A stretch of DNA of 62,969 nt, filler included. It is 5 parts of 5 records of this genome, joined end to end, with 100 filler letters (N's around TTAATTAATTAA, not from the genome) between each part and the next. Parts side by side here need not be neighbours in the genome. Positions count along the whole stretch, not along the records: positions 8,959 to 26,676 come from SRR31156797_25140; 4 more parts are not named here. The stretch is one strand, 5' to 3'. The position numbers were made by a program, and so were the translations under genes. Within the stretch, counting starts at the first letter, position 1; each line of letters opens with the position of its first letter. Shown here piece by piece: positions 10,484 to 26,776 of this stretch. The notes beneath the pieces are model-generated. The model was not told the DNA's origin. It did no database searches and saw nothing but the letters and a program-made list of their open reading frames with translations.

Positions 10484-10492
10484 GTTTGAATA

Positions 10493-10600: not shown

Positions 10601-10641
10601 TTGAAGGCATTGTGTTTCCCAACTATCATAAAGGAGCGATT

Positions 10642-11775: not shown

Positions 11776-11987
11776 GTATTGATACTGAAGCGGGATGGTC
11801 GCATTGCGCTTCAGTTACACTAGTCGTGGGATACTTCCAGAGGGATGGACGCCGGTGTTCGGCATCCCATTCCAAGGATTTTAAATCGTAAAATTGAAAG
11901 GGATCCTCTTGGATTTTTCAAGCATGGGCGGGCGTTCCGTCTCTGGTGAGAAACACGGGCAAGTACATTTTAGGTGGTTGAAGGAAT

Positions 11988-13496
11988 ATGAATTCTAAGG
12001 GCTTGGAAATGAAGGGAATTTCAATGGAATTCCCGGGAGTAAAAGCACTTGATGGAGTCGACTTCTCTGTAAAAAAGGGAGAAGTCCATGCCCTTATCGG
12101 TGCGAACGGCGCAGGAAAAAGTACCCTGATGAAGGTCCTTGCAGGTGTTAATAGAAACACTGCGGGGGAGATCTTCATCGACGGTAAAAAAGTTGAATTT
12201 CATAATCCAATGGATGCCAAAAAATATGGTATCGTTATTGTCTATCAAGAGGTAGATACTGCATTGATTCCGCATCTCACGGTTGCGGAAAACATCATGA
12301 TGGATTATTTGATTGGTGAACAGAAGAATCTTTTCATAGATTGGAATAAAATTCACCAGGAAGCAAAAGATGTATTAAAAAAGCTTGGTCTTGATATCGA
12401 TGTAAACAAGCTGATCAGCGAATTAACTCTATCGGAAAAACAGATGGTTCTTATTGGAAGAGCCGTTTTCCATAAAGCCGAATATCTAATCCTCGATGAG
12501 CCGACAGCGCCTTTGAGCGTAGAGGAAACAAATAAACTATTTGAGATTGTTGAAGCAATAAAAAATCGGGGTGTGAGTGTCATCTTCATCTCTCACAGAC
12601 TCGATGAAATTTTCAGGATTTGCGAACGCATCACAGTATTGCGGGACGGGAAGCTCGTCGGCGTCTATGATATCGGTTCGGAAACAATAGATTCTATTGT
12701 GGAAAAAATGCTTGGGCGAAAGCTGGAAGCCACATTCCCGAAGCATGATGTCGAGATCGGCAGTAAGATATTTGAGGTGAGGCAGCTCAGCGGGGAAGGC
12801 GGGATCAACCGCATAGATATGCATGTAAACGCCGGTGAGATTGTCGGCATCTCCGGTCTTGTCGGCGCAGGCAAGACAGAGCTGGTAAAACTCTTATTCG
12901 GGGCTGCGAAAACTCACAGCGGAGAGCTCATTCTTAAGGGGAGGGCGGTTGCTCCCAAGACACCGTCTCAAGCTGTGAAGACCGGTTTTGCTCTGGTTCC
13001 GGAAGAGCGAAGGCGAGAGGGGATACTTGTTCACGAATCTATTGAAACAAATGTTACCCTTCCCACCCTGAGAAAATACTGCGGCGGTCCGTTTATGAAT
13101 GCTTCTAAGATCAAGGAATCCGCAATACGCATGATCCGAACCGTAAAGATAAAAGCTCCCCATGAGAGAGTGCATGTCGCAAAATTATCCGGGGGAAACC
13201 AGCAAAAAGTGGCTATTGGTAAATGGCTTGTTTCTGATGCAGATATCTTTATGTTCGACGAGCCGACAAAGGGCGTGGATGTCGGCTCGAAAGCTGAGAT
13301 CTATAACCTTATCGGAAAGCTGGTCTCTCAGAAAAAAGCTGTGATCTACGCCACCTGCGAGTTCTCAGAAATTCTCGGTCTGACTGACAGAGTTTATGTG
13401 ATGTACAACGGAACCATTGCTGCCGAACTCGTTACGAGAAAAACAAATGAAGAAGAGTTGCTATTATACTCAACCGGCGGAGGAAAGAATGAATAA
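11988..13496 (+). CDS. Sugar ABC transporter ATP-binding protein (RbsA/MglA type, two ABC domains)
   Basis: GANGAGKST, ILDEPT, ISHRL, LSGGNQQKV, DEPTKGVDVG. Confidence 0.96.
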   Translation: MNSKGLEMKGISMEFPGVKALDGVDFSVKKGEVHALIGANGAGKSTLMKVLAGVNRNTAGEIFIDGKKVEFHNPMDAKKYGIVIVYQEVDTALIPHLTVAENIMMDYLIGEQKNLFIDWNKIHQEAKDVLKKLGLDIDVNKLISELTLSEKQMVLIGRAVFHKAEYLILDEPTAPLSVEETNKLFEIVEAIKNRGVSVIFISHRLDEIFRICERITVLRDGKLVGVYDIGSETIDSIVEKMLGRKLEATFPKHDVEIGSKIFEVRQLSGEGGINRIDMHVNAGEIVGISGLVGAGKTELVKLLFGAAKTHSGELILKGRAVAPKTPSQAVKTGFALVPEERRREGILVHESIETNVTLPTLRKYCGGPFMNASKIKESAIRMIRTVKIKAPHERVHVAKLSGGNQQKVAIGKWLVSDADIFMFDEPTKGVDVGSKAEIYNLIGKLVSQKKAVIYATCEFSEILGLTDRVYVMYNGTIAAELVTRKTNEEELLLYSTGGGKNE

Positions 13497-14511
13497 TTTG
13501 AAAGAGATGCCCGTTTTCCTGAACAGGAAAATGAGATTTGATATCTTTGGATTCCTTTACAGATATGGAACCATTGTCGTAACAATACTTGCGATAATCT
13601 ACTTTTCGGTGTCAGTAGAGAATTGGTTCACTTTCGGAAATATGACGAATATTTTCAGATCCGTTTCTATTGTCTGTTTGATAGCCCTGGCAATGACCAT
13701 GTCCCTCACTGTTGACGGATTCGACCTGTCGACGGCTGCCACCGCGTCATTTGCTGCCGTTATTGCCGCGAAGGTGATGATTATCTGGGAAATGCATCCT
13801 GTGATTGCCATCCTTCTGCCTGTCTCCGTGGGCTGTCTGATCGGGCTGGTGAATTCATTTCTGATCATCAGACTAGGGATCTCGGATATGCTGACTACAC
13901 TCTCTATGATGTTTGTCATCACAGGAATTTCCATTACATTCCAGGAAGGTTCGGCCATCTATAACTATATGCCCATGCTCGAGGGGGGTGTCGCTCCCGG
14001 TCTGATGAGTGAGAATTTCAAGGCCATCGGACAGGCGGAATTCCTTCAGATCCCCATACCGGTCTTTATCATGCTTGCCATCGCTGTCATTGTGCATGTT
14101 TTCCTGAACATGACGAAGTATGGCCGCTTTATGTACATGACGGGTGGCAACGAAGAAGCAGCGAGGCTTTCCGGTATTCCGACAAAGAAATTCAGAACCC
14201 TTGCCTATGTCCTTTCCGGAGCGATCGCAGCCCTTGCAGGCGTCGTTCTTTGCGCGAGACTCGGCTCAGGAGAAGTCGATGCCGCCGGGCCTTACCTGAT
14301 GGATGCGGTAGCGGCGGCCTATATCGGATATTCCGTCCTCGGCGCGGGTAAACCCAATGCCTTCGGTACGTTGCTCGGAGCCTTGCTCGTAGGCATTCTG
14401 ATGAACGGTCTGGTAATGATGAGCTTTCCATATTACTCACAGAATATTGTTAAGGGAGTCGTACTGATTCTGGGTCTTGGTCTTACATATTACAAGAGAA
14501 AGGGGTACTGA
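13489..14511 (+). CDS. Sugar ABC transporter permease (RbsC type)
   Basis: Multi-TM; GFDLS, TKYGRFMYMTGGNEEAARLSGI. ATG 13489 overlaps the ATPase stop. Confidence 0.93.
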   Translation: MNNLKEMPVFLNRKMRFDIFGFLYRYGTIVVTILAIIYFSVSVENWFTFGNMTNIFRSVSIVCLIALAMTMSLTVDGFDLSTAATASFAAVIAAKVMIIWEMHPVIAILLPVSVGCLIGLVNSFLIIRLGISDMLTTLSMMFVITGISITFQEGSAIYNYMPMLEGGVAPGLMSENFKAIGQAEFLQIPIPVFIMLAIAVIVHVFLNMTKYGRFMYMTGGNEEAARLSGIPTKKFRTLAYVLSGAIAALAGVVLCARLGSGEVDAAGPYLMDAVAAAYIGYSVLGAGKPNAFGTLLGALLVGILMNGLVMMSFPYYSQNIVKGVVLILGLGLTYYKRKGY

Positions 14512-14514
14512 AGA

Positions 14515-15726
14515 ATGGAAAGATACTACGAACTGAATACCGAAACAGTCATCGATTATGTTAATGAAAAAGTGAATGGTTTCTTTGCAGAGGATGCGGA
14601 ATTCGAGTGCACTGAGATCGGCGATGGAAATCTTAATTTGGTCTTTAGAGTAAAGGACGCGAGAAACTGTAAGAGCGTTATTGTAAAGCAATCGCTGCCA
14701 TATGTCAGAGCCGCCGGCGAGGACTGGCCCCTCGATATCGGAAGGGGTGAGATAGAAAGCAGAATCCTCGACATTGAGTATAAATTGACTGATGGGCTCG
14801 TACCTGAGATCCACCTTTATGACGGTGATATGTGCTGTATGATTATGGAAGATCTTTCTGATTATAGAATTATGAGATACGGCCTGATTGATCGAGAAAT
14901 ATATCCTGAATTTGTAGAGCAAATCTCAGATTTTATGGTCAAAACGCTTTTTCTCACATCTGATGTCGTGATGGAACATAAGGATAAAAAGGATTACGTA
15001 AAGAACTTTATCAATCCCGAGCTCTGCGAAATAACTGAGGATCTGGTTTATACCGAGCCTTTCAATAGCGGCGCAAGGAATGATATGGAAGAAAACCTTG
15101 TGGATTTCCATAAAAAGAACATTGTCGACGATCCGAAGCTTGCACTGGAGGCGGCGAAACTGAAGTTTGACTTCATGAATAATGCGCAGGCCCTTCTTCA
15201 TGGAGATCTTCATACGGGGTCAATTTTTGTTAATAAAGAGAGTACGAAGGTAATCGATCCTGAATTTGCTTTTTATGGACCCATCGCATACGACATCGGT
15301 GCCCTTGTCGCCAACCTGATAATGAGTTATTTATCAGCTTTTTTTGGAACAGAGCATCCTGAGAAGAAGGATGAGTACTGTCGCTGGATACTGAAAACCA
15401 TTAAGGATACTGTGGATGTAACGAAGGCTAAGTTCCTATGTGAATGGGACGGCGCCGTTACCGATCAGATGGCAAAGAAGGACGGTTTCAAAGAGTACTG
15501 GGTTGAGGATGTGTTTATTAATACCGCAGGTGTCTCAGGTTGTGAAATGACGCGGAGGACAGTCGGTTTCGCACATGTGAAAGACCTTGATGGAATGGAA
15601 GATGACGATGCCAGGTACAAGGCGAAAACTGTCAATCTTATCATAGCCAAAGAACTGATTATAAATAGAGCCGACTATGTATGCGGACAGGATTATCTCG
15701 ATCTCATCGACAAGCACTGTAAATAA
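14515..15726 (+). CDS. mtnK: 5-methylthioribose / 5-deoxyribose kinase
   Basis: EIGDGNLNLVF, KQSLPYVR, NPELCEITEDLVYTEP, LHGDLHTGSIF, IDPEFAFYGP, RRTVG. Confidence 0.95.
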   Translation: MERYYELNTETVIDYVNEKVNGFFAEDAEFECTEIGDGNLNLVFRVKDARNCKSVIVKQSLPYVRAAGEDWPLDIGRGEIESRILDIEYKLTDGLVPEIHLYDGDMCCMIMEDLSDYRIMRYGLIDREIYPEFVEQISDFMVKTLFLTSDVVMEHKDKKDYVKNFINPELCEITEDLVYTEPFNSGARNDMEENLVDFHKKNIVDDPKLALEAAKLKFDFMNNAQALLHGDLHTGSIFVNKESTKVIDPEFAFYGPIAYDIGALVANLIMSYLSAFFGTEHPEKKDEYCRWILKTIKDTVDVTKAKFLCEWDGAVTDQMAKKDGFKEYWVEDVFINTAGVSGCEMTRRTVGFAHVKDLDGMEDDDARYKAKTVNLIIAKELIINRADYVCGQDYLDLIDKHCK

Positions 15727-15744
15727 AGATAAGGAAGGTATTGA

Positions 15745-16803
15745 ATGAAGACTATTGTTCCCGCAAGACTGAACGATTCAAAAGATAAACTGGTTCTTCT
15801 TGACCAGACGCTGCTCCCTGGGGAAGAGAAATTCTTGGAACTGGATCAGAGAGAGGATATCTGGGAAGCCATTAAGAAGCTGAGGGTAAGAGGTGCACCC
15901 GCGATAGGGATTTCCGCTGCCTTCGGTATGTATGTTTGCTCGAACAGGGTAGATGCGGCTGATGTCCCCAGTTTCAAAAAAGAAGTCATTGAACTGAAAG
16001 AGTATTTCGCCACATCCCGTCCGACCGCTGTTAATCTGTTCTGGGCTCTCGATCGGATGTTCGATCGCTTCGAAAGCGAAGAGAAGGCTGGAAAATCGGT
16101 AGCGGAGATTAAGGCTGCTTTCCTTGAGGAAAGTGAAGAGATCCTTCGGGAGGACCAGGAGATGGGCGAGGCCATCGGTAGGTATGGACTTGAACTGCTT
16201 AAGCCCGGCATGGGGCTGCTGACCCATTGCAATGCCGGTGGTCTCGCCTGTTCGGGAATCGGCACGGCCCTGGCTCCCATGTATGCAGGGCATGATGCGG
16301 GCTATGGTTTCAAGATCTATGCCGATGAGACCAGACCCCTCCTTCAGGGATCAAGGCTGACAACTTATGAGTTAAACAAGGCCGGTCTCGATGTAACGGT
16401 TATCTGCGATAATATGGCCTCTATTGTGATGAGGCAGGGGAAGATCGGTGCCGTGCTTGTGGGAACCGACAGGATTACGGCTAACGGCGATGTCATCAAT
16501 AAGATTGGAACATCGGGCGTGGCCATACTCGCAAAGGAGTACGGAGTTCCTTTCTATGTCCTCGGACCCTATTCAACCATAGACCTCAATACGGCAACCG
16601 GCAACGAGGTCGAGATTGAGCTTCGCGACAGTGATGAAATCGGAAACGGTTTTGGAAAAAGGACCGCTCCCGAAGAGGTCGACGCTTATAACCCGGCCTT
16701 CGATATTACGGATCATAAATATGTTTCGGCCATTATAACCGAGAAAGGGATCGTAAGGCCTCCCTATAAAGAAAACCTTGCACGATTGTTTAAAGCGCAG
16801 TGA
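15745..16803 (+). CDS. mtnA: Methylthioribose-1-phosphate / 5-deoxyribose-1-phosphate isomerase
   Basis: LDQTLLP, VRGAPAIG, SRPTAVNL, THCNAGGLA, ETRPLLQGSRLT, NKIGT, NPAFDIT. Confidence 0.96.
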   Translation: MKTIVPARLNDSKDKLVLLDQTLLPGEEKFLELDQREDIWEAIKKLRVRGAPAIGISAAFGMYVCSNRVDAADVPSFKKEVIELKEYFATSRPTAVNLFWALDRMFDRFESEEKAGKSVAEIKAAFLEESEEILREDQEMGEAIGRYGLELLKPGMGLLTHCNAGGLACSGIGTALAPMYAGHDAGYGFKIYADETRPLLQGSRLTTYELNKAGLDVTVICDNMASIVMRQGKIGAVLVGTDRITANGDVINKIGTSGVAILAKEYGVPFYVLGPYSTIDLNTATGNEVEIELRDSDEIGNGFGKRTAPEEVDAYNPAFDITDHKYVSAIITEKGIVRPPYKENLARLFKAQ

Positions 16804-16810
16804 GGAAGCA

Positions 16811-17581
16811 ATGTCTGAATATATGACGGAAATCCAGGCTCGCAAAGCGATTTGTGAGATTGGCGATAAGATGTATTTCAAAGGGTATGTCGCCGCCAAT
16901 GATGGGAACATATCAGTCAAAATCAGTGATGATACCATCATAGTGACACCTACGGGTGTCAGTAAAGGCGGCATGACAGCGAATTCCCTCGTTAAAATGA
17001 AACTTGACGGGACTGTCATAGGGAAGAACAAGCCCAGCTCCGAGGTAAAGATGCATATCAGGGTGTATCAGCTGAACCGAAATGTCAAATCGGTTGTGCA
17101 CGCCCACCCGCCTGCGTCGACAGCCTTCGCCATAGCCGGAATCCCGATGGACAGACCCATAATGAGCGAGTCCATTCTCACCTTGGGTGTCGTTCCAGTG
17201 GCGGAATACGCGCTGCCCGGAACGAAGGAAGTGCCCGACTCGATTGAACCCTATGTTAACTCGCATAATGCTGTATTGCTTGCCAATCACGGCCTGCTGA
17301 CCTGGGGAGACGATATCACTCAGGCTATGTACAGAATGGAATCGGCGGAACAGTACTGCAATATTATGATTAACCTGAAATCCATAGGTGAGCCGAAGGA
17401 ATTCAGCTGTTCTCAGGTTAGCGATCTGATTTCCATCAGGGAGAGGCTCGGGATCGATGCCGGTGGGGTTCCCCCCTGTGATGGAAACACTGGCAACAGG
17501 ACGAGCGCCGATGCGGCTCAGGGGGATCAGGCAAAGCTGATAGAGACGATCACCCGCCAGGTCCTGTCTCAGTTGAAATAG
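16811..17581 (+). CDS. Class II (metal) aldolase, FucA/Ald2/DrdA-like, with C-terminal encapsulation peptide
   Basis: DGNIS, TPTG, PSSEVKMH, VHAHP, LLANHG; G/T/A linker then QAKLIETITRQVLSQLK. Confidence 0.9.
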   Translation: MSEYMTEIQARKAICEIGDKMYFKGYVAANDGNISVKISDDTIIVTPTGVSKGGMTANSLVKMKLDGTVIGKNKPSSEVKMHIRVYQLNRNVKSVVHAHPPASTAFAIAGIPMDRPIMSESILTLGVVPVAEYALPGTKEVPDSIEPYVNSHNAVLLANHGLLTWGDDITQAMYRMESAEQYCNIMINLKSIGEPKEFSCSQVSDLISIRERLGIDAGGVPPCDGNTGNRTSADAAQGDQAKLIETITRQVLSQLK

Positions 17582-17590
17582 GGGGGGCGT

Positions 17591-19048
17591 GTGAGTTATT
17601 CGGAAACACAGATAGAGGACATCGTCCGACAGGTCGTAAGCAAGACCCTTGGATCCGCATCCGGACAAGTGCCGGTGGCTCCTCCCGTTCAACCGCCGCC
17701 AAACAGCGGTGAACTCTGGGGGGTGTATGACGATATCAGCGAGGCCATTGATATTGCAAAGGCAAATTACTGTGCCCTGAGCAAGGATTACTCAATGGCT
17801 GACAGGCAGCGCTTTGTCGACGCGATCAGGCAGTATACGCTGGCTGAGAAAGAGATCCTTGCCCGTATGGTGCTGGAGGAGACGAAGCTCGGCAACTATG
17901 AAGACAAGATAGCGAAGCACGAGTTGGCTGCCATGACTTACGGCACTGAGATCCTGCAGACTTCGGCGCGCACAGGGGATACGGGGCTGGCGGTCGTCGA
18001 AGAGGCTCCGTTCGGGGTTATCGGGGCTACCACTCCGGTAACGAATCCGACGGAAACCATAATCAACAACTCTATGAGTATGTTGGCTGCCGGGAATACG
18101 GTTGTCTTCAATGTGCATCCCAGTTCCAAAGGCTGTTGCGCGTATGTCGTGGATAAGATAAACCGCGCCATTGTCAGTGCCGGCGGTCCTAAAGGCCTTA
18201 TCACCATGGTCCGGAACCCGACTATGGATAGCCTGAATGCTCTGGCAGACAGCCCTCATATCAATCTTTTAATGGGAACAGGCGGTCCGGGGCTGGTGAA
18301 GACATTGCTGAAATCCGGCAAGAAGGCTATTGGGGCCGGAGCCGGGAATCCGCCTGTTATAGTGGATTCGACGGCTATTGTAGACAAAGCCGCATCGGAT
18401 ATTGTTAAGGGACACTCCTTTGATAACAATATCGTCTGTATCCTCGAGAAAGAGGTTTTCGTATTGGATGATGTGGCAAATAGTCTCATCTCCGAGATGC
18501 AGAAGAACGGGGCCTGTCTGCTGCGTTCTGAGCAGGTGTCAGAGCTGATGTCCGTTGTCCTCTTGAAGAATGAACATGACACGACGGGAAAGAAACCCTA
18601 TATCCTGAATAAGGATTGGGTGGGGCAGGATCCCTGTAAATACCTTGATAGAATCGGAGTCACTTATCAGAGCAAGCCAAAGTGTCTGGTCTGCGAAGTC
18701 GATTTCGAGCATCCCTTCGTTCAGCTGGAGCTGCTTATGCCCATCCTGCCGATTGTCAGGGTGGAGACCTTTGATCAGGCCGTCGGCATGGCTGTCGAGG
18801 CCGAACACGGCAATAGGCATACTGCCATGATCCATTCCCAGAATATCGCGAATATCACCAAGTTCGCAAAGGCTGTCAATACAACGATCTTCGTGAAAAA
18901 CGGCCCGTCCCTGGCCGGGCTCGGAATCGGCAGCGAGGGAACCTGCAGTTTCTCGATCGCAGGACCTACGGGTGAAGGAATCACAACCGCGCGGACCTTT
19001 ACCAGATCCCGGCACTGCGTTCTGGTTGACGGATTCAGGATCATTTAA
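17591..19048 (+). CDS. CoA-acylating aldehyde dehydrogenase (PduP/EutE family) with N-terminal encapsulation peptide
   Basis: SETQIEDIVRQVVSKTL plus Pro-rich linker; PFGVIGATTPVTNP, GTGGPG, GAGAGNPP, catalytic FDNNIVCILEKE, ELLMP, AGPTGEG. Confidence 0.95.
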   Translation: MSYSETQIEDIVRQVVSKTLGSASGQVPVAPPVQPPPNSGELWGVYDDISEAIDIAKANYCALSKDYSMADRQRFVDAIRQYTLAEKEILARMVLEETKLGNYEDKIAKHELAAMTYGTEILQTSARTGDTGLAVVEEAPFGVIGATTPVTNPTETIINNSMSMLAAGNTVVFNVHPSSKGCCAYVVDKINRAIVSAGGPKGLITMVRNPTMDSLNALADSPHINLLMGTGGPGLVKTLLKSGKKAIGAGAGNPPVIVDSTAIVDKAASDIVKGHSFDNNIVCILEKEVFVLDDVANSLISEMQKNGACLLRSEQVSELMSVVLLKNEHDTTGKKPYILNKDWVGQDPCKYLDRIGVTYQSKPKCLVCEVDFEHPFVQLELLMPILPIVRVETFDQAVGMAVEAEHGNRHTAMIHSQNIANITKFAKAVNTTIFVKNGPSLAGLGIGSEGTCSFSIAGPTGEGITTARTFTRSRHCVLVDGFRII

Positions 19049-19389
19049 TGAAGGCATTAGGTATTCTCGAGCTCTGCGGTTATTCGACGGCATTGCTTGC
19101 GTCGGACAGCATGTGTAAAGCAGCTGATATCAGAATTGTCGCATTTGATTTTAACAAACCGGGCGCTGCGGATCTGGATAAGATACCGCTGCTTGCTCAG
19201 ATTAAATTTGTCGGCGGAGTGGATGACGTTAAGGCCGCGCTGGAAGCCGGTATACGCTGTGCTGAAAAGTACAATGACAGGGAAGAGATCCTGGGAAGGG
19301 TCATCCCGAATTACGATGAGGGACTGACAGGCTTAATTAAGCTTACGAAGATAAAGAAAGTTAATCGAAACATACGGAGGACATTATGA
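19048..19389 (+). CDS. Divergent BMC-H shell protein
   Basis: [26 protein letters not shown]...[13 protein letters not shown]...VIPN. Confidence 0.85.
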
Positions 19390-19661
19390 GTAGCGCGATT
19401 GGATTTATTGAAACACGGGGGCTGACTGCGGCGATTGAGGCATCTGATAATATGTTGAAGACCGCTATGGTCGAACTTGTGGGAATGGAAAAGATTGGAT
19501 CAGGCCTTGTCACTGTTATCGTTAAGGGCGAGGTCGGGGCCGTGAAGGCCGCAACGGAAGCCGGTGCGGAAACAGCAAGCGCTCTTGGAGAACTCGTTGC
19601 CATGCATGTCATACCGCGCCCCCATGCGGATGTTGCCAAGATACTTCCTTCCCTGAAATAG
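19386..19661 (+). CDS. BMC-H shell protein (PduA/EutM type)
   Basis: [22 protein letters not shown]...[21 protein letters not shown]...HVIPRPH. Confidence 0.97.
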
Positions 19662-19670
19662 AAGCGGACT

Positions 19671-19964
19671 ATGGAAAACAAACCGCTGTTGGTATTGGAG
19701 ATTCAAAACTATTCGGAATCCTTATTGATCTGCGACAAGCTCTCAAAATCTGCGGACCTCAAGCTCGTGCATCTGCAGACCAGTTTGGGAGGGCGTCTGG
19801 TGACATTGGTATTCAGCGGTACCAGTTCCGACTGCAGAATCGCTAAAGATCTGGCATGGCAAAGCTACGCAGGAACGAAGTTATTGAAGGTCTGCGACAC
19901 GATAGACCGGCCTTCAGAACAGTTATCCAACTACTTCAAAACAGGAGAATTTGATAATGAGTGA
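19671..19964 (+). CDS. Highly divergent BMC-H shell protein
   Basis: LVLEIQNY...[13 protein letters not shown]...[20 protein letters not shown]...TIDRP; BMC-domain pattern and size within the shell cluster. Confidence 0.75.
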
Positions 19965-20259
19965 TACAAAATCAGCCGTAAAGCTCGGCACCGCGATAGG
20001 TTTCATTGAAACAAGAGGACTGACCGCAGCCATTGAAGCGGCAGATAACATGCTGAAGTCGGCAGAGGTCGCGCTCGTAGGGATGGAGAAGATCGGTTCC
20101 GGTCTGGTCACTGTCATCGTCCAGGGTGATGTGGGGGCGGTGAAGGCCGCTACCGAAGCCGGTTCGGAAAGCGCTTCGGCTCTTGGAGAGCTCGTCGCCT
20201 CCCATGTTATTCCCAGGCCTCATGACAATGTCGGAAATCTTCTTCCGTCTGTCAAGTAA
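19957..20259 (+). CDS. BMC-H shell protein (PduA/PduJ type)
   Basis: [24 protein letters not shown]...KIGSGLVT...GDVGAVKAA...[15 protein letters not shown] before ATG 19957. Confidence 0.97.
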
Positions 20260-20265
20260 ACGGTT

Positions 20266-21000
20266 ATGGAGGATGTCGTTCGCCAGGTGACCGCCAGAGT
20301 GATGGCCGCCCTTGCAGCGGGGGAGCCATGCGGGCATACCAGTGCTGAAGGTTCCGTCTCTTCTCATGCTTACCGGCATGGAGTCACTGTAGGAGTCTCC
20401 AATAGGCATGTACACCTGGACGCCGCTTCTTTGGAGACGCTGTTCGGGCCGGGGTATGAGTTAGAGCCGTTTAAGGAGCTTAGCCAGCCGGGTGAGTTTG
20501 CCTCAAGCGCATTCGTTGATATTGAGCACGATGGCTATCGCATAGAAAGACTCAGGGTTCTCGGACCTCTGCGCGGCAAAACTCAGATAGAGTTATCAGA
20601 GACCGATGCCAGGAGCCTGAAGATGACGCTGCCTATTCGCAGCTCGGGCAAGCTGGAAGGCACGCCCGGTCTCAGGATCTCAGGCCCTGCGGGAAGCCTG
20701 GACCTGAAGGAGGGATGCATCATCGCCTCAAGGCATATTCATCTGCATAGCTCAGATGCTCAGCGTCTGGGGGTGAAGGACGGTCAGACGGTTCACGTCA
20801 GAATGCTTGGCGAAAAATCCGGTGTGATAGGCGATGTCGTGTGCAGGGTCAGCGACCGCTACAGTTTTGAGCTTCACATCGATACGGATGACGCAAATGC
20901 TTTTCTGCAGAAGACCGGCGATATTGCGGAAATCCTACTTGAACCATTTTACTTTAATCACAAAGAGGAAGCCTATGTTGTTAGGAACGATAACCGGTAA
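20266..21000 (+). CDS. pduL: BMC phosphate acyltransferase PduL with N-terminal encapsulation peptide
   Basis: MEDVVRQVTARVMAAL; GVSNRHVHL, LSQPGEF, RVLGPLR, SRHIH, LHIDTDDANA. Confidence 0.94.
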   Translation: MEDVVRQVTARVMAALAAGEPCGHTSAEGSVSSHAYRHGVTVGVSNRHVHLDAASLETLFGPGYELEPFKELSQPGEFASSAFVDIEHDGYRIERLRVLGPLRGKTQIELSETDARSLKMTLPIRSSGKLEGTPGLRISGPAGSLDLKEGCIIASRHIHLHSSDAQRLGVKDGQTVHVRMLGEKSGVIGDVVCRVSDRYSFELHIDTDDANAFLQKTGDIAEILLEPFYFNHKEEAYVVRNDNR

Positions 21001-21211
21001 TGTTGTTTCAACTAAAAAAATAGAAAAGCTCGTCGGATGCAAGTTTATGAAAGTAAAGATCGATTCAAGGTCTGAAGAGATTGTTGCCGTAGACGCAGTC
21101 GGCGCGGGTATTGGAGAACAGGTCCTTGTTACGACAGGCCACAATGCCAGATTCGCTATGGCTGGAGCGGAACAAGCTGTCGATGCCGTGATCGTCGGAA
21201 TTGTCGACTGA
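20975..21211 (+). CDS. BMC-P vertex protein (EutN/CcmL/PduN family)
   Basis: MLLGTITGNVVSTKK...VAVDAVGAGIGEQVLV...DAVIVGIVD; GAGGA RBS before ATG 20975. Confidence 0.95.
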   Translation: MLLGTITGNVVSTKKIEKLVGCKFMKVKIDSRSEEIVAVDAVGAGIGEQVLVTTGHNARFAMAGAEQAVDAVIVGIVD

Positions 21212-21213
21212 TA

Positions 21214-21753
21214 ATGAACGATTCGCTAGGAGTTGTTGAATTCACTTCGATACCCGCCGGTTACAGATTGTATAACCGTATTCTGAAAGACGTTCAGCTG
21301 AGTCTCTTCCGGGATATGATTGTTGCCCCTGCCAGATTCATAATCATGCTGAAGGGGAGTTATGCTGCCATTGAACATGCTGTCGAATGGGCCGTTCATT
21401 CATCTGCGGAAGATATTCTGGACTACTCAATTATTGGGGCCGTGCATGATGCACTTCGCTTATGGCTGGGGAATGGAACCCATTCAGATGCGGGTACGGA
21501 CATCGGCCTCTTTGAAACAGAAACCCTGTGCGCTGGCATTGAACTGACAAACCGCCTGCTCCATGGAGCGCCGGTGGGGTTGCTGCATATGAACTGGAGC
21601 ACGGAAATGCATGGGCGCTGCCTGATCGCTGTCAGCGGTTCAGTATCCTCAATACAGACGGCCCTTGAATATGCCGGCGGCGCATTGATTTCAAATGTAG
21701 AGCCGACAGTCCTTAGAAGCATCACGGCGAATACCGGAGATTGTAATGGCTAA
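21214..21753 (+). CDS. BMC-T tandem-domain shell protein (PduT-like, divergent)
   Basis: SLGVVEFTSIPAG...GSYAAIEHAV; second domain IGLFETET...GRCLIAVSGSVSSIQTAL; 179 aa. Confidence 0.85.
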   Translation: MNDSLGVVEFTSIPAGYRLYNRILKDVQLSLFRDMIVAPARFIIMLKGSYAAIEHAVEWAVHSSAEDILDYSIIGAVHDALRLWLGNGTHSDAGTDIGLFETETLCAGIELTNRLLHGAPVGLLHMNWSTEMHGRCLIAVSGSVSSIQTALEYAGGALISNVEPTVLRSITANTGDCNG

Positions 21754-22894
21754 TTTCTATGCACCTCAGAATAATCTGCTCGGTCCCGGCTGTCTTGAAC
21801 AGATCACGGATGAGATCGCAGCAAAGGGATTTGGAAAGGCCCTCATCGTTACCGACTCCTTTATGGAGAAAACCGATGCGTTCAAACGTCTCCTTGCCGC
21901 TCTGACGAAAGCGGGTTGCTGCTGGAAGGTTTACAGCGGCACCGTTCCCAACCCGACGGTAGAAAATGTAGAGGACGCTTACGGCCTGATCTGCAAGGAC
22001 CCCTGTGATTTCATTGTATCCCTCGGTGGCGGTTCGGTACATGATTGCGCGAAAGCCGTCGGCATTACAGCGACAAGCGGCGGCTGCATAAGGCAGTATG
22101 CGGGAACGGGAAAGCTCAAGGCTCCGATCCTGCCCTTAGTCGCGGTGAATACAACGGCCGGTACGGGCTCTGAGGTAACAGGATTCTGTATCATCACCGA
22201 TAAGCAGAGACGGGTTAAGCTTGCGATTGTCGATCCGGCAATGACATCCTGGATATCGGTGAATGATCCGACGACGATGCTTTCTAAACCTCCGGCGTTG
22301 ACGGCGGCAACCGGCATGGACGCTTTGACCCATGCCATCGAGGCCTATGTTTCGCTAAACGCAAGCTGCGTAACCGATGCTCTGGCGATCAAGGCCGTGG
22401 ATATGATTATCAAGAATCTGCCGGCGGCTGTCGAGAACGGAGGCGATCTGGAGGCTCGTGAAAGGATGGCTGAGGCGCAGTTCCTCGCGGGTATGGCCTT
22501 TTCCAATGCCTCCCTCGGCTGGGTTCATGCCATAGCCCATCAGCTTGGGGGGATCTACAACCTGCCCCACGGCATATGTAATGCGGTTCTCCTTCCCTAT
22601 GTCGTGGCCTACAACGGCAGGCATATGACCGGTCGCCGTTTCGCCGATATCGCGGCCTGTTTCGGACGGGAGCTCTTTAACGGGCAGGACCGTTTCAGTT
22701 CAAGGATCGTCGCGGATGCTATTGGAAAACTGAACGCCCGATTGGGTATTCCGAAGAGGCTGCGCCATATGGGCGTAAAGAAAGATGATTTCGGGGTGAT
22801 CGCGAATCATGCGCTTGAGGATGCCTGTGCCTCGACTAACCCCGTTCAGACAGGAGAGCCGGGCATCACAGCTATCTTGGAAGCGGCCTGGTGA
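21746..22894 (+). CDS. Iron-containing alcohol dehydrogenase
   Basis: GGGSVHDCAK, NTTAGTGSE, GMDALTHAIE, HAIAHQLGG, PHGICN. Confidence 0.95.
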   Translation: MANFYAPQNNLLGPGCLEQITDEIAAKGFGKALIVTDSFMEKTDAFKRLLAALTKAGCCWKVYSGTVPNPTVENVEDAYGLICKDPCDFIVSLGGGSVHDCAKAVGITATSGGCIRQYAGTGKLKAPILPLVAVNTTAGTGSEVTGFCIITDKQRRVKLAIVDPAMTSWISVNDPTTMLSKPPALTAATGMDALTHAIEAYVSLNASCVTDALAIKAVDMIIKNLPAAVENGGDLEARERMAEAQFLAGMAFSNASLGWVHAIAHQLGGIYNLPHGICNAVLLPYVVAYNGRHMTGRRFADIAACFGRELFNGQDRFSSRIVADAIGKLNARLGIPKRLRHMGVKKDDFGVIANHALEDACASTNPVQTGEPGITAILEAAW

Positions 22895-22909
22895 CAAGGA
22901 TGGATTGAC

Positions 22910-24244
22910 GTGAAGGTAATAGTGATAGGCGGTGTCGCCGCAGGTATGAGCGCCGCCGGAAAGATACGGCGCAATATGCTCGAATCTGAGGTCGTTGTCT
23001 ATGAAAAGGGCAGCACCCTATCGTACGGAGCCTGCGGCTTGCCGTACTATGTCAGCAATGTGATAAAGGATCGTGATGCTATGATCGCCAGAACGGCTGA
23101 GGAGTTCAGAGCGCAGGGAATATCAGTGAAGCTCTTCCATGAGGTCGTAGGGCTGAAGACGGATGAACATACTGTCGTGGTCAGGGATCTGCAGAATGGC
23201 GGGATCTTTACGGATAGCTATGACAAGCTTGTTATCACCAGCGGTGCTTCCGCCGTCGTTCCTCCGTGGAAAGGGGTGGAGCTCGACAATATCTTCGTCC
23301 TGTCAAATCTTGAGGATGGAGATTCCATCAAGCAGGCGGCGCATCATAGCCGCGTTAAATCGGTGACAGTCATAGGAGCCGGGTTCATAGGTGTCGAGCT
23401 GGTGGAAGCCTTCCTTGAGATAGGGAAACGGGTTACTCTTGTGGAGCTGCAGAACCAGATTCTCCCCGGCTTTGATAAGGATATGGCGCAGCCCCTTCAG
23501 GAAGAGCTGGAGAGCAAGGGGGCGGTCCTCAAGCTTGGGGAAAAGGTCGAACGCTTCGAGGGCGCTTCCTGTGTTGAACGCGTTGTCACGAACGTAAACT
23601 CCTATGCCTCCGATCTCGTTGTGATTGCCGTCGGTGTCAGACCGAACACATCCTTTTTGGACGGTACGGATATTGAAAGGCTTGGCAACGGCGCGGTCGT
23701 TGTAGACAGGAGCATGCGGTCGAGCCATCCCGACATCTTTGCCGGAGGAGACTGTGCGACAGTATTTCACAAGGTCCTGGTACGCAGCGATTCCTACATC
23801 CCTCTTGGCACCAACGCGAATAAGCAGGGGAGGATGATTGGCGACATCCTCTGTTCTGTTCCTGTGGATTATCAGGGGACTCTCGGAACCGCCATGATTA
23901 AGGTTTGCGATTATGAAGCCGCGAAGACCGGCATTACCGAAAAGGACGCCATTCTGAATCATATCCCCTACCAGACTGTGAGCGTGAAAGCTGGAAGCCA
24001 TGCCGCCTACTATCCCCGTCAGGAGCCGACCTACATTAAGCTCGTCACGGCTCCGGATTCAAAGAAAATCCTTGGTGCGCAAGTTGTTGGCAAAGAGGGG
24101 GCTGCCCTTCGTGCCGATATCTTTGCTATGGCGGTGCACACAGGTATGACCGCTCCCGAGCTCGGCTATGTCGACTTCGGTTATTCCCCGCCCTTCGCAG
24201 GCGTTTGGGATGCTGTAAGCGTTGCAGCTAACAGGGTGAAATAG
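22910..24244 (+). CDS. CoA-disulfide reductase / NADH (per)oxidase family flavoprotein
   Basis: IGGVAAGMSAA, redox Cys SYGACGLPY, IGAGFIGVE, AGGDCA, C-terminal YSPPF. Confidence 0.9.
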   Translation: MKVIVIGGVAAGMSAAGKIRRNMLESEVVVYEKGSTLSYGACGLPYYVSNVIKDRDAMIARTAEEFRAQGISVKLFHEVVGLKTDEHTVVVRDLQNGGIFTDSYDKLVITSGASAVVPPWKGVELDNIFVLSNLEDGDSIKQAAHHSRVKSVTVIGAGFIGVELVEAFLEIGKRVTLVELQNQILPGFDKDMAQPLQEELESKGAVLKLGEKVERFEGASCVERVVTNVNSYASDLVVIAVGVRPNTSFLDGTDIERLGNGAVVVDRSMRSSHPDIFAGGDCATVFHKVLVRSDSYIPLGTNANKQGRMIGDILCSVPVDYQGTLGTAMIKVCDYEAAKTGITEKDAILNHIPYQTVSVKAGSHAAYYPRQEPTYIKLVTAPDSKKILGAQVVGKEGAALRADIFAMAVHTGMTAPELGYVDFGYSPPFAGVWDAVSVAANRVK

Positions 24245-24256
24245 CGGAGGCCGCCG

Positions 24257-25082
24257 ATGATAGACAAACGGGTAGACTTAAAAGATGCGGCCGGGAGCGT
24301 CAGGGATCGAAGCACTCTGGCTCTCGGCGGGAATACATTGAACCGGGGCGCTATGGCTTTCTGCCGTGAGTTGGCGAGACAGAAGAAGAGAGCTGGCTCT
24401 GGTTAAAACCGCCGGAGGAATGGATGTCGATTTGCTTGTCCTTGCCGATTGCGTCAGATCGGTTGCCGCCGGTTTTATCAGCTTTGAGACTAAATACGGG
24501 CTTGCTGATAATTACCGCAGGGCAGTTCAGTCAGGAAGCGTAAAGGCCGATGAGCATGCATGCTATACCATCGTGTCCGCTCTCCGCGCTGCGGTTGCGG
24601 CTCTTCCGTTCATGCCGGTCCGGGGGCTTGTAAACTCGGATCTTATCTCTGCAAACGACTACTTCAAAGAGGTCGAATGCCCTTTTACAGCTGAGAAGCT
24701 GACAGCCGTAAAGGCTATTGTTCCGGATGTCGCGGTTATACATGCGCATGAAGCCGATCGAAACGGCAATGCTCTTATCAAAGGTCCGAAATTTGATGAT
24801 GTCCTTATGAGCCGGGCTGCCAGGCGGGTTATCGTCACGGCTGAAAGGATCCTTCCGGAAAGTTATTTCCAGAATAAGACGACGGCTGTTGATATTCCTC
24901 ACTTTCTGGTCTCCCATGTCGTGCATGTGCCGGGAGGCGCTTTCCCGAATGCCTGTTCTCCCTGTTACGAGGTTTCTGAGTCAGAGCTCAGGGAGTATAT
25001 GGCGCTTCAGGATCCGGCGGGCTTGGAGGAGTACCTGAAGAAACATGAGCGAAAAGATTATCAGGGAAAAAGGAGTTTCTGA
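24257..25082 (+). pseudogene. CoA-transferase family I-like subunit A, frameshifted near 24389 (pseudogene, slippage variant or assembly error)
   Basis: GGAGG + ATG 24257 gives MIDKRVDLKDAAGSVRDRSTLALGGNTLNRGAMAFCRELARQKKR then a stop at 24404. The homologous continuation ELALVKTAGGMD...LRAAVAALPFMP...CPFTAE...PDVAVIHA..AD..GN is in the +1 frame. Confidence 0.8.
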
Positions 25083-25819
25083 TGCCGGTCAAGATTGATG
25101 CCACCCTCCGGAAGGCCGATATGATGGTCACTGCCATAGCACGGCTGATGAGGAACGGAGAAACTGTATTTCATGGCGTCTCTTCGCCCATCCCTCTCGC
25201 TGCGGTCAGCCTGGCAAAGGCGCTGCATGCCCCTGACATGGTCTATTTGAATATACCCGGCGGCGTGGATGGCAAGCCATCCAGGATATTGAACCACTCT
25301 ACCGCCGGCGCTGATATTCTTGATCGCGCCCCTGCCTATTTTCCATTGATGGAGGTCTTTGACTTATCCATGAGAGGGGGACTGGATGTGGCTTTTCTTT
25401 CGGGTGTCCAGTTCGATCCGTATGGTAATGTGAATGCAAGTGTGATCGGGGATTACTGTAAGCCTAAGGTCAGGCTTCCCGGCGGTGCCGGTTCGGCAGT
25501 GCTGATTCCCACCGCTAAAAAACCCATAATCTGGCGTACCGTCCATAACAAACGCACTTTCGTGAAGAAATGTGATTTTAATACGACCCGCGGTGAGCTC
25601 TACCGTATCGTGACGCCTTTGTGCGTATTCAGAATGGAAAAGGGCAGGGTCGTTCTGGACAGAGTGTTCCCCTACTCCTCGATCGAAGAGATCAGAGAAA
25701 ACACGGGTTTTGAGCTGATCTATGATGAGCTGGTCTACGAACCGGAACCGACAGCTGAAGAGCTCAGGATCCTGCGGATGATAGATCCGAAAAAGAATCG
25801 GACTATGGAATTTAAATAG
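25082..25819 (+). CDS. CoA-transferase family I-like subunit B (GctB/AibB-like)
   Basis: GVSSPIPLAA...HAPD, DVAFLSGVQFDPYGNVNASVIG, RLPGGAGS, IVTPLCVF, IRENTGF. Confidence 0.88.
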   Translation: MPVKIDATLRKADMMVTAIARLMRNGETVFHGVSSPIPLAAVSLAKALHAPDMVYLNIPGGVDGKPSRILNHSTAGADILDRAPAYFPLMEVFDLSMRGGLDVAFLSGVQFDPYGNVNASVIGDYCKPKVRLPGGAGSAVLIPTAKKPIIWRTVHNKRTFVKKCDFNTTRGELYRIVTPLCVFRMEKGRVVLDRVFPYSSIEEIRENTGFELIYDELVYEPEPTAEELRILRMIDPKKNRTMEFK

Positions 25820-25897
25820 CTGTCTTCATCGTTTGTTATTGTTTTTAAGTTTCCGGGTTGTCTATACACTTGGCTCTTATAAAAGGAGGATCCTATA

Positions 25898-26332
25898 ATG
25901 TTAAATAATATTCCCAAGATACTATCACCCGAGATCGTCAAGTTCCTGATGGAAATGGGGCATGGGGATGAATTGATCATTGCCGATGGTAATTTCCCGT
26001 CAGTAACATGCGCGCAGAGGCTTGTACGTGCGGACGGACATACCGGCACGGATATTCTCGATGCCGTTCTGCAGCTTTTTCCACTGGATCCATATGGTGA
26101 TGAGATACCTGTGTCTCTGATGGAAAAGGTTCCGGGAGACAGCGTGGAGACTCCCATTTGGGATGAATACAGGGATATCGTGAAAAAGTACAATCCCGAT
26201 TTCTCTGAATTCAACTTCATTGAGCGCTTTGATTTCTATGATAGGGCTAAAAAATCCTTTGGTGTTATAGCAACGGGTGAAAGTGCCCTCTATGCCTGCC
26301 TGGTGCTGAGAAAAGGGATCATTGCTGGCTAA
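25898..26332 (+). CDS. RbsD/FucU-family sugar mutarotase
   Basis: ILSPEIVKFLMEMGHGDELIIADGNFP, ERFDFYDRAK, ATGESALYA. Confidence 0.92.
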   Translation: MLNNIPKILSPEIVKFLMEMGHGDELIIADGNFPSVTCAQRLVRADGHTGTDILDAVLQLFPLDPYGDEIPVSLMEKVPGDSVETPIWDEYRDIVKKYNPDFSEFNFIERFDFYDRAKKSFGVIATGESALYACLVLRKGIIAG

Positions 26333-26676: not shown

Positions 26677-26776
26677 NNNNNNNNNNNNNNNNNNNNNNNN
26701 NNNNNNNNNNNNNNNNNNNNTTAATTAATTAANNNNNNNNNNNNNNNNNNNNNNNNNNNNNNNNNNNNNNNNNNNN
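26677..26776. other. Artificial contig spacer
   Basis: 44 N + TTAATTAATTAA + 44 N. Confidence 0.99.

Follow-up and report, generated by a model that had tools for sequence, protein, structure and literature searches.

The DNA analysed here (the window) comprises 62,969 nucleotides, filler included, in five parts of five records, and positions 8,959-26,676, from SRR31156797_25140, carry a gene cluster whose members all lie on the plus strand. At its head is a DeoR-family regulator (9639-10388; Pfam HTH_DeoR and DeoRC), followed by a sugar ABC importer (10585-14511; Pfam Peripla_BP_4, two ABC_tran and BPD_transp_2) with a binding protein (10585-11775), an ATPase (11988-13496) and a permease that ends at 14511 and whose start is uncertain (the ORF caller chose a TTG at 13417). 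The binding protein scored above cut-off for no characterised sugar-binding family in NCBIfam, and a TTGACA-16-TATGAT element at 10544-10571 is promoter-like by consensus match alone. An MtnK-family sugar 1-kinase (14515-15726; NCBIfam TIGR01767, 462.7 bits, cut-off 275) and an MtnA-family isomerase, converting aldose-1-phosphate to ketose-1-phosphate (15745-16803; NCBIfam TIGR00512, 398.4 bits, cut-off 279), precede a class II (metal-dependent) aldolase of 256 residues (16811-17581), with gaps of 18 bases between mtnK and mtnA and 7 bases between mtnA and the aldolase gene.

Downstream lie a CoA-acylating aldehyde dehydrogenase (AldDH) of the EutE/PduP type (17591-19048; NCBIfam PRK15398, 636 bits, cut-off 403) and four single-domain BMC shell genes (19048-20259), matching PF00936 at E-values of 8.8e-14 (19048-19389), 2.6e-28 (19386-19661), 3.3e-6 (19671-19964) and 5.8e-30 (19951-20259). 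The PduL phosphotransacylase (20266-21000; Pfam PTAC at residues 42-214), a BMC-P vertex protein (20972-21211; EutN_CcmL) and a tandem-domain BMC-T (21214-21753; PF00936 in two stretches) come next, then an Fe-dependent alcohol dehydrogenase (ADH; 21746-22894; Pfam Fe-ADH and ADH_Fe_C), a CoA-disulfide reductase (CoADR; 22910-24244; NCBIfam NF007123, 528 bits, cut-off 458), CoA-transferase subunits A (24257-25082, its frame broken near 24380-24400) and B (25082-25819), and an RbsD/FucU-family mutarotase (25898-26332; Pfam RbsD_FucU). By Pfam annotation, the cluster lacks homologues of FucI, FucK, RhaA and RhaB.

Residues E78, H97, H99 and H160 of the aldolase are invariant in 40 relatives, as is C283 of the AldDH in 31. 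The aldolase passes no NCBIfam equivalog; its best models, both below cut-off, are those for 3-oxo-tetronate-4-phosphate decarboxylase, at 140 bits against a cut-off of 250, and for a haloarchaeal ribulose-1-phosphate aldolase, at 114.5 bits against 300. Among solved structures 6voq scores highest (93.9 bits), followed by DrdA (6btd) at 86 bits, while E. coli FucA reaches 56 bits; to judge by these scores, the aldolase is distant kin of DrdA and no close orthologue. An earlier note on this DNA had named the aldolase as the signature enzyme, and for this locus type that assignment, as a signature-type enzyme, is supported.

Tagged and untagged enzymes

Similar helices at the aldolase C-terminus and at the AldDH and PduL N-termini, as proposed in the earlier note, were found in each of these places. 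The aldolase (ATG at 16811) carries LIETITRQVLSQL at residues 243-255 (17537-17575), the AldDH (GTG at 17591) carries IEDIVRQVVSKTL at residues 8-20 (17612-17650), and PduL (ATG at 20266) begins with MEDVVRQVTARVMAAL, residues 1-16 (20266-20313), followed by a linker to about residue 41. All three lie outside their own Pfam domains (Aldolase_II at 13-186, Aldedh from 47, PTAC from 42). In an AlphaFold2 model of the aldolase (40-row alignment, mean pLDDT 91.3), the last helix of the core spans residues 200-212, a coil occupies 213-235 (17447-17515; pLDDT below 50 at 228-233), and a terminal helix runs from 236 to 255 (17516-17575); the linker has no consensus residues in alignment A1. The corresponding AldDH model (31 rows, mean pLDDT 87.6) places a helix at residues 5-21 and the core from about 45, with the linker (22-44; helix and linker together 17603-17722) at pLDDT below 50 over 21-39. 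Thus modelled, both peptides are predicted to be a helix on a disordered linker.

A core, E[DT][IV][VT]RQV, is common to the three termini and has exactly three matches among the window's 125,938 six-frame residues, although it was defined only after the three peptides were known. The scan for encapsulation peptides that the earlier note had proposed was made with an HMM built from the C-terminal 26 residues of 57 tailed aldolases, all from other genomes, and run over every six-frame segment of the window 40 residues or longer (733 in total). Its three best matches were, in this order, the aldolase C-terminus at 15.5 bits with E 5e-4, then the N-termini of PduL at 14.0 bits with E 1.6e-3 and of the AldDH at 4.6 bits with E 1.6, the last weak by itself; no MtnK, MtnA, ADH or CoADR segment was among the 15 best matches listed. 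Hydrophobic moment alone (0.63, 0.59, 0.47) did not separate the peptides from internal helices, and tags within one locus were not clearly more alike than tags between loci (105, 898 and 126 of 2000 permutations at or above the observed mean). All sequence features known from published encapsulation peptides, which draw cargo into the shell, are present in the three predicted helices. As tags they are ordinary, because encapsulation peptides are already on record for these three enzymes in PVM-like loci, and a published survey gives the extension on 21 of 23 BMC-associated aldolases.

The further proposal that MtnK, MtnA and the Fe-ADH carry no such extension is borne out by alignments that are near end to end: MtnK 21-397 to 24-390 of the 397-residue B. 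subtilis kinase 2olc, MtnA 6-351 to 29-370 of the 374-residue chain 2yrf, and the Fe-ADH (382 residues) 3-381 to 5-382 in an NCBIfam model of 383 positions. The same is true of CoADR (1-443 to 1-443 of 444, NCBIfam). At a threshold of at least 4 bits across the loci of the best 80 of 599 aldolase relatives, the tail HMM matched 8 of 41 AldDH and 10 of 35 PduL proteins, always N-terminally, and 0 of 25 MtnK, 0 of 44 MtnA, 0 of 15 CoADR and 0 of 4 Fe-ADH; the ends of MtnK and MtnA in this set are alike in shell-linked and shell-free loci. However, the absence of a tag is no proof that MtnK, MtnA or the ADH sit outside the shell; the published survey describes alcohol dehydrogenases as generally untagged, some enzyme subunits likewise as untagged, and both as possibly entering by piggybacking.

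Tails, shell genes and mtn genes among relatives

The comparison set consisted of the best 80 of 599 aldolase relatives in GTDB species genomes. Beyond core position 205 the aldolases of these 80 run on for either at most 39 or at least 51 residues, a bimodal distribution, and shell genes, detected solely by blastp with the window's shell proteins, lay within 10 kb of 43 of 57 tailed and 0 of 23 untailed aldolases. Fisher's test, which ignores relatedness, gives p 9e-11; with relatedness allowed for, the association is not significant (four independent pairs on supported branches, median p 0.125), shell genes going with the tail in 3.5 pairs on average and never the opposite way. Of the 14 tailed loci in which no shell genes were detected, six have at least one flank under 5 kb, and six of nine such exceptions tested have shell genes elsewhere in the genome. 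The tailed Cytobacillus oceanisediminis has as its sole shell locus one of purine type, lacking AldDH and PduL. The earlier note would have been refuted by the same tail in BMC-free genomes, and in part it is: three genomes with intact-looking tails (a Christensenella sp. with a 2.6-Mb chromosome, and MAGs of 4.3 and 1.9 Mb) have no BMC-domain gene genome-wide. For the Christensenella, recent shell loss is plausible, because shell genes are present in a sister species.

That the mtn genes are tied to the microcompartment beyond their position in the window, as the earlier note also suggested, is upheld by synteny conserved elsewhere. Among the same 80 of 599 relatives, mtnA or mtnK occurs in 18 of 43 tailed shell-linked loci, and 17 of 23 untailed aldolases are still near mtnA or mtnK, without shell genes. 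Metagenome contig L094 reproduces the whole window order, starting at DeoR and ending with CoA-transferase B, with protein identities of 54-100%, and loci L102 and L093 reproduce parts of it. Of these 80 loci, 11 of the 18 that are both shell- and Mtn-linked have CoADR/CoA-transferase genes, as do 1 of the 25 remaining shell loci and 0 of the 17 Mtn loci with an untailed aldolase; as judged from gene content, these are accessory genes specific to the Mtn-linked locus type.

In a tree of the aldolase core (110 rows, six long-branch rows left out), the window falls in a clade of 31 rows (support 99) whose members with known context (4 of 4) are tailed, shell-linked and Mtn-linked, and shell loci lacking Mtn genes make up another clade, of 29 rows (support 99). 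The Mtn-free shell loci have other feeders or none, one having a TIM-barrel isomerase and two FGGY kinases. In four of five genomes with Mtn-linked shell loci, the shell-linked MtnK is the sole MtnK homologue and no MtnB was found above cut-off, and their MtnK and MtnA therefore cannot feed classical methionine salvage; in the fifth, a further MtnK lies about 5 kb from a true MtnB. Literature searches turned up no paper that connects microcompartments with the MtnK/MtnA pathway, and the coupling looks new.

A proposed organelle and its alternatives

The reading we favour, and hold to be reasonably probable, is that the locus encodes a PVM-like metabolosome, with tagged aldolase, AldDH and PduL, that burns 5-deoxy-D-ribose or 5-methylthio-D-ribose by DHAP-shunt chemistry; against it count the intact tails in shell-free genomes, the tail-shell association losing significance with relatedness allowed for, the aldolase's failure to pass any NCBIfam equivalog and its distance from DrdA, the weak AldDH match to the tail HMM and the frameshift in the CoA-transferase A gene. 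For the substrate, the place of the untagged enzymes and the metabolites crossing the shell, we infer the following course. The ABC system would import one of these two 5-deoxypentoses, the MtnK homologue would phosphorylate it at C1, and the MtnA homologue would convert the product to a ketose-1-phosphate, which would enter the shell and be cleaved there by the tagged aldolase to DHAP and acetaldehyde (or 2-methylthioacetaldehyde). The AldDH would trap the aldehyde as acyl-CoA, PduL would recycle the CoA with formation of acyl-phosphate, the ADH would re-oxidise NADH, and DHAP would exit to glycolysis. If true, the organelle would make use of 5-deoxy sugars left by SAM chemistry.

It is rather unlikely, in our estimate, that the whole pathway lies in the shell, with MtnK, MtnA and ADH piggybacking on tagged cargo and with free sugar and ATP, not ketose-1-phosphate, crossing. 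The untagged and perhaps piggybacked enzymes of the published survey would fit this arrangement, as would probable co-translation of mtnK, mtnA and the aldolase gene at their 18- and 7-base spacing; against it are the 0 of 25 MtnK and 0 of 44 MtnA proteins with a tag-like terminus and their like ends with or without a shell (best 80 of 599), and the pairing of untailed aldolases with the same MtnA neighbours in shell-free loci. The same architecture could instead serve another pentose, for example ribose-derived ribulose-1-phosphate split to glycolaldehyde and DHAP, to which the second-best aldolase model (114.5 bits, under its cut-off of 300) and the lack of a characterised family above cut-off for the binding protein could point; MtnK and MtnA, however, pass the equivalog cut-offs of methylthioribose enzymes, and we regard another pentose as distinctly unlikely.

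An aldolase acting on fuculose- or rhamnulose-1-phosphate to give lactaldehyde, with mtn genes as mere neighbours serving methionine or SAM salvage, would agree with the FucU-family mutarotase at 25898-26332, with the want of a close DrdA orthologue, and with reviews that give PVM-like loci a PVM-similar substrate because the aldolase family is shared. It is nonetheless very unlikely in view of the missing FucI, FucK, RhaA and RhaB, the Mtn linkage recurring in 18 shell loci as well as among untailed relatives (best 80 of 599), the separate supported clades of Mtn-linked and Mtn-free shell aldolases, and the missing MtnB in four of five genomes. Most improbable is a tail acting mainly as a self-association or regulatory helix, not specific to microcompartments and resembling the AldDH and PduL termini by convergence on a generic amphipathic helix. 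Intact tails in three shell-free genomes and in a fourth whose sole shell locus is unrelated, the unremarkable hydrophobic moment and the permutation results would suit it, but nearby shell genes at 0 of 23 untailed against 43 of 57 tailed aldolases (best 80 of 599), shell genes elsewhere in six of nine tested exceptions, a seven-residue core found nowhere else in the window and a plausible recent loss in Christensenella argue against it.

Comparison with known systems

The locus is of the same catalogued kind as the PVM-like loci (Axen 2014; Sutter 2021 catalogue, 36 loci), and the catalogued genome Paramaledivibacter DSM 15212 has a tailed aldolase 57% identical to that of the window. The PVM-like literature, in its running text as far as available, assumes a fucose/rhamnose-like substrate and names no MtnK or MtnA, whereas the window's feeders are MtnK and MtnA, accompanied by CoADR and the CoA-transferase pair; its nearest named relatives are Spirochaetales MAGs, in contrast to a catalogued range of Firmicutes. 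The PVM organelle of Planctomycetes and Verrucomicrobia, for fucose and rhamnose, likewise has a tagged class II aldolase as signature and DHAP as by-product, but differs in a BMC-P triplet, a lactate/malate-type dehydrogenase, acetate kinase and its restriction to those phyla, and its aldehyde is lactaldehyde. For SPU loci, entry of a phosphorylated sugar, aldolase cleavage to acetaldehyde and triose phosphate, and triose phosphate exit have similarly been proposed; their signature, however, is a class I DeoC-type aldolase that bears an N-terminal extension and acts on deoxyribose-5-phosphate, with RpiB alongside.

The chemistry itself is that of the DHAP shunt or 5-deoxyribose disposal, DrdK-DrdI-DrdA in B. 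thuringiensis and MtnK-MtnA-Ald2 in E. coli ExPEC, in which a kinase, an isomerase and a class II aldolase yield DHAP and an aldehyde. The B. thuringiensis kinase, isomerase and aldolase have been shown to turn 5-deoxyribose into DHAP and acetaldehyde in vitro, and such loci often have sugar transporters, a fucose-mutarotase homologue (drawn in the published 5-deoxyribose cluster) and a DeoR-family repressor, the E. coli operon being repressed by DeoR-family MtnR. The described pathways are cytosolic, and the word "microcompartment" occurs in neither paper; in the window, by contrast, the aldolase is tagged and distant from DrdA (86 bits), and a full aldehyde-processing core lies downstream of it together with shell genes.

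Composition of the gene cluster

The genes under study form a single tight, co-directional cluster on the plus strand (9639-26332). It begins with a DeoR regulator, next to which lies a sugar ABC importer, and continues with an MtnK-family kinase (14515-15726; NCBIfam TIGR01767, 462.7 bits against a cut-off of 275), an MtnA-family isomerase (15745-16803; TIGR00512, 398.4 bits, cut-off 279), a class II aldolase (16811-17581; Pfam domain at residues 13-186) and a CoA-acylating aldehyde dehydrogenase, AldDH (17591-19048; Pfam domain from residue 47). Four BMC-H genes separate AldDH from PduL (20266-21000; Pfam domain from residue 42), after which come a BMC-P and a BMC-T gene, an Fe-alcohol dehydrogenase, a CoA-disulfide reductase (NF007123, 528 bits, cut-off 458), two CoA-transferase subunits and, as the last gene, a FucU-family mutarotase, all on the same strand. 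From mtnK through to the shell genes the intergenic gaps are 18, 7 and 9 bases and then give way to overlaps, the 7 bases being those between the end of mtnA and the start of the aldolase gene. The best promoter-like site (10544-10571) is positioned ahead of the binding-protein gene, and promoter-like consensus matches are not commoner in the window than in shuffled sequence.

Residues E78, H97, H99 and H160 of the aldolase are invariant in 40 relatives, and correspond to the glutamate and the three metal-binding histidines of FucA-type enzymes; C283 of AldDH is likewise invariant. The aldolase passes no NCBIfam equivalog, and its score on the MtnB model (88.8 bits) is below the cut-off of 137. 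Compared with solved relatives it scores 93.9 bits with 6voq, 86 bits with DrdA (6btd), the aldolase of the 5-deoxyribose pathway of B. thuringiensis, and 56 bits with E. coli FucA; DrdA is no nearer a relative than 6voq, though a nearer one than E. coli FucA.

Several other features of the region were recorded. The first shell gene (19048-19389) encodes an atypical BMC-H of 113 aa, conserved in two loci of aldolase relatives (L093 and L094); its domain contains an insertion, and its C-terminal tail is strongly basic and has a helical moment of 0.84, the highest in the locus. The CoA-transferase A gene (24257-25082) has a frameshift near 24380-24400, such that its first ~50 residues (from the ATG at 24257) are in a different frame from the remainder (ORF 24366-25082); either the sequence is in error here or the gene is a pseudogene, and in the syntenic contig L094 the gene is intact, as a single gene of 295 aa. 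The upstream flank (8970-9458) contains a chemoreceptor signalling-domain fragment, and the downstream flank has a dCache-type chemoreceptor gene on the strand opposite to the cluster (26729-28543, minus). The open-ended ORF 2-3124 (>1040 aa), with a flagellin C-terminal domain at its end and hexapeptide-repeat (left-handed beta-helix) matches mid-protein, would from its sequence specify an unusually large flagellin-like protein, and is followed downstream by fliD, fliS and then fliW on the other strand. A PNP_UDP_1 gene (28768-29487) was considered as an MTA nucleosidase and rejected, being under all cut-offs and best matched by a hopanoid-associated phosphorylase.

Terminal peptides of the aldolase, AldDH and PduL

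The earlier note had described helical encapsulation peptides on three enzymes of the cluster, and these were found in the sequence exactly where it had placed them, outside the Pfam domains of the aldolase (residues 236-255), AldDH (5-21) and PduL (1-16). AlphaFold2 helix predictions cover the aldolase and AldDH termini. In the aldolase model (40-row alignment, mean pLDDT 91.3) the core closes with a helix at residues 200-212, residues 213-235 are coil with pLDDT <50 at 228-233, and a terminal helix occupies 236-255; in the AldDH model (31 rows) a helix at 5-21 is followed by a stretch with pLDDT <50 (21-39), and the enzyme body starts at about residue 45. The linker columns of both enzymes are without alignment consensus, and a hydrophobic spacing of i, i+3/4, i+7/8 and i+11/12 is readable in the peptide sequences. 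A core, E[DT][IV][VT]RQV, defined post hoc from the three peptides themselves, is common to all of them; in the six-frame translation of the window it has three occurrences, all at these termini.

For an independent check, the C-terminal 26 residues of 57 tailed aldolases from other genomes were made into an HMM, which was searched against 733 six-frame segments of at least 40 aa. Scanned in this way for encapsulation peptides, the window gave all three termini at the top of the ranking: the aldolase end (15.5 bits), the PduL start (14.0 bits) and the AldDH start (4.6 bits, a weak match taken alone). Hydrophobic moment was rejected as a tag detector, internal helices of many proteins equalling or exceeding the peptide scores. 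It had also been claimed that MtnK, MtnA and the Fe-alcohol dehydrogenase have no such extension, and this was borne out by their end-to-end matches to solved or modelled homologues; the CoA-disulfide reductase is matched end to end as well, and there is therefore no room for a tag on any of the four.

These assignments were extended to 80 loci, the best 80 of 599 aldolase relatives in species-representative genomes. Among them, the tail HMM scored at least 4 bits at the N-terminus of 8/41 AldDH and 10/35 PduL proteins, and a tag-like terminus was found in 0/25 MtnK and 0/44 MtnA homologues. A test for co-evolution, measured as tag similarity within a locus, gave weak or no signal (105, 898 and 126 of 2000 permutations reached the observed mean), the AldDH tag being cut off in some loci with long linkers. 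The PduL proteins of one Mtn-linked group (L019, L021, L023-L026) have a C-terminal extension of 72-142 residues past the window PduL. The identification of the three termini as cargo tags is well founded but ordinary, and adds nothing new to known rules: a published survey already describes N-terminal tags on PduL-type transacylases, AldDH tags at either end, and alcohol dehydrogenases without tags.

Association of tail, shell and mtn genes among aldolase relatives

Among the 120 best of 7938 aldolase relatives, 104 have at least 249 aa and 16 at most 233 aa, with nearly all of the long proteins ending in a similar helix motif. In the 80 loci, blastp searches with the window's proteins were used to score neighbours within 10 kb. 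Tails, measured past core position 205, fall into two length classes (<=39 aa in 23 loci, >=51 aa in 57), and aldolases with tails of at least 45 aa were classed as tailed, a regular expression that missed L019, L021, L024 and L026 having been dropped. Shell genes were present within 10 kb of 43/57 tailed and 0/23 untailed aldolases (Fisher p = 9e-11, relatedness ignored), and at 24/32 tailed and 0/15 untailed loci having at least 8 kb on both flanks. Independent pairs on supported branches provided only 4 contrasts, in which shell follows tail in 3.5 on average and never the reverse (median p 0.125); the test is not significant because the pairs are too few.

The 14 tailed, shell-less loci were considered separately. 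Six have a flank of <5 kb on at least one side, and nine were searched genome-wide for PF00936, with shell genes found elsewhere in 6/9 genomes, among them an EUT and a glycyl-radical locus in Paenibacillus alvei, another aldolase-type shell locus in Christensenella tenuis, and only a purine-type shell locus in Cytobacillus oceanisediminis. The same genome-wide search found no BMC-domain gene in 3/9, namely a 2.6-Mb Christensenella chromosome and two MAGs. Tails in BMC-free genomes, which the earlier note had named as evidence against its reading, thus do occur in a minority of genomes; by locus counts the tail is therefore strongly, not exclusively, shell-associated, and recent shell loss would be a plausible explanation of the exceptions.

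In the shell-free cases L014, L027 and L053, the aldolase (at about 10001-10800 in each) has an intact-looking tag helix and adjoins mtnA; these tails may be left over from a shell since lost, or may serve a second purpose. In P. alvei (L017, L020 with L091, L092) the tailed aldolase, mtnK and mtnA are on a different contig from the EUT and glycyl-radical loci, and the aldolase could be a satellite cargo for the acetaldehyde-processing EUT compartment. Three individual aldolase relatives (P0011, P0012, P0014; 219-223 aa), 87-88% identical to the window's, end just before the linker and nest within its tailed clade. Contig ends may have truncated them, or they may be genuinely without tails; the short form was absent from 11 loci found by a metagenome scan with P0011.

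An mtnA or mtnK gene lies within 10 kb in 18/43 tailed, shell-linked loci. Such genes are also near 17/23 untailed aldolases, none of these with shell genes, so the link between aldolase and MtnA predates the shell and does not depend on it. The window's whole gene order is repeated in L094, a 76-kb metagenome contig, at 54-100% protein identity, and parts of it in L102 and L093. A tree was computed from 110 aldolase cores after removal of six very long rows. It places the window in a clade of 31 rows with support of 99; the 4 members whose context is known are all tailed and linked to both shell and Mtn genes. The remaining Mtn-linked aldolases make up a group of 47 with weak support (77), in which tailed and untailed members are intermixed, and shell loci lacking Mtn genes are set apart in a clade of 29 (support 99). 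A previous tree of 81 rows had the window on a long branch near this Mtn-free shell clade, a placement that was lost once close relatives were added. Among the Mtn-free loci, the feeders of L055 are a TIM-barrel isomerase and two FGGY kinases, and L076 and L078 have no feeder genes nearby.

In 4/5 genomes with Mtn-linked shell loci, the MtnK beside the shell genes has no second copy and nothing reaches the MtnB cut-off; in the fifth genome another MtnK lies ~5 kb from a true MtnB. The MtnK/MtnA pairs of these shell loci are therefore not enzymes of classical methionine salvage. The CoA-disulfide reductase with the CoA-transferase A/B pair further distinguishes these loci, being present in 11/18 Mtn-linked shell loci, 1/25 other shell loci and 0/17 untailed Mtn loci. 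Besides the window (22910-25819), loci listed with this observation are L002-L010, L023, L025, L060, L094 and L102; none of these enzymes is tagged, and they might act in CoA-pool protection, in handling of a non-acetyl acyl-CoA (e.g., of a methylthio acid) or in NAD regeneration. Together, comparative genomics gives good support to the functional tie of the mtn genes to the microcompartment that the earlier note had proposed, and the tie appears undescribed in the literature searched.

Proposed pathway and relation to known microcompartments

In the literature searched, no paper was found linking microcompartments to the 5-deoxyribose, methylthioribose or DHAP-shunt pathway. One paper that mentions both a microcompartment and methylthioribose describes the kinase gene as having no relation to BMC function. 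The terms mtn, methylthio and aldolase are absent from a gut-microbiome BMC survey, and PF01008, IF-2B and methylthioribose from the supplement text of the microcompartment catalogue, the locus drawings being outside that text.

In the proposed pathway, a 5-deoxypentose would be imported, phosphorylated at C1 by MtnK and isomerised by MtnA to a ketose-1-phosphate. The tagged aldolase would cleave this in the lumen to DHAP and either acetaldehyde (from 5-deoxyribose) or 2-methylthioacetaldehyde (from methylthioribose), and AldDH, PduL and the alcohol dehydrogenase would run the usual metabolosome core. The shell would join a cytosolic DHAP shunt at the aldolase step and contain the acetaldehyde or methylthioacetaldehyde, with the CoA-disulfide reductase and CoA-transferase pair as putative type-specific helpers. 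We infer which substrate is used, that the untagged enzymes stay in the cytosol and which metabolites cross the shell; ketose-1-phosphate would be a reasonable point of entry. Published work shows the kinase-isomerase-aldolase chemistry in vitro for a cytosolic B. thuringiensis cluster, and growth on 5-deoxyribose, with a DeoR-family repressor, for E. coli strains with the pathway. That such loci constitute a distinct, widespread metabolosome class for 5-deoxyribose and/or 5-methylthioribose catabolism, in which a DHAP shunt is joined to a shell at the aldolase and the CoA-disulfide reductase and CoA-transferases are type-specific helpers, is a proposal with equal chances of proving right or wrong.

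PVM-like microcompartments are catalogued and present in human-gut bacteria without a tested function, their substrate having been guessed from the aldolase family alone, and the conserved MtnK/MtnA feeders provide a concrete and cheaply testable substrate hypothesis. If true, much of the catalogued PVM-like set, whose members occur in Bacillaceae, Clostridia, spirochaetes and some gut bacteria, would have its substrate re-assigned. 5-Deoxyribose and 5-methylthioribose are sugar remnants of radical-SAM and polyamine chemistry; the pathway would also tie microcompartments to the disposal of SAM by-products, made by every radical-SAM-rich anaerobe. The pattern of tagged and untagged enzymes provides a natural case for asking if a phosphorylated ketose crosses a shell.

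With respect to known systems, the window peptides share with encapsulation peptides a terminal position outside the catalytic domain, a predicted amphipathic helix of roughly 15-20 residues and a poorly conserved, flexible linker. The catalogue counts 36 PVM-like loci, mostly in Clostridia and Bacilli, with AldDH, PTAC and BMC-P closest to GRM5/GRM5-like homologues, and the literature gives them a PVM-like substrate by analogy. Like these loci, the window has a PF00596 aldolase with a C-terminal tag adjoining shell genes, AldDH, PTAC (PduL), BMC-H and BMC-P in one locus, and the DeoR regulator found in most of them. With the DHAP shunt it shares an MtnK-family kinase and MtnA-family isomerase above their cut-offs, with which a class II aldolase, not an MtnB dehydratase, is clustered. 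The locus is best classed among the PVM-like microcompartments, as a functionally new variant.
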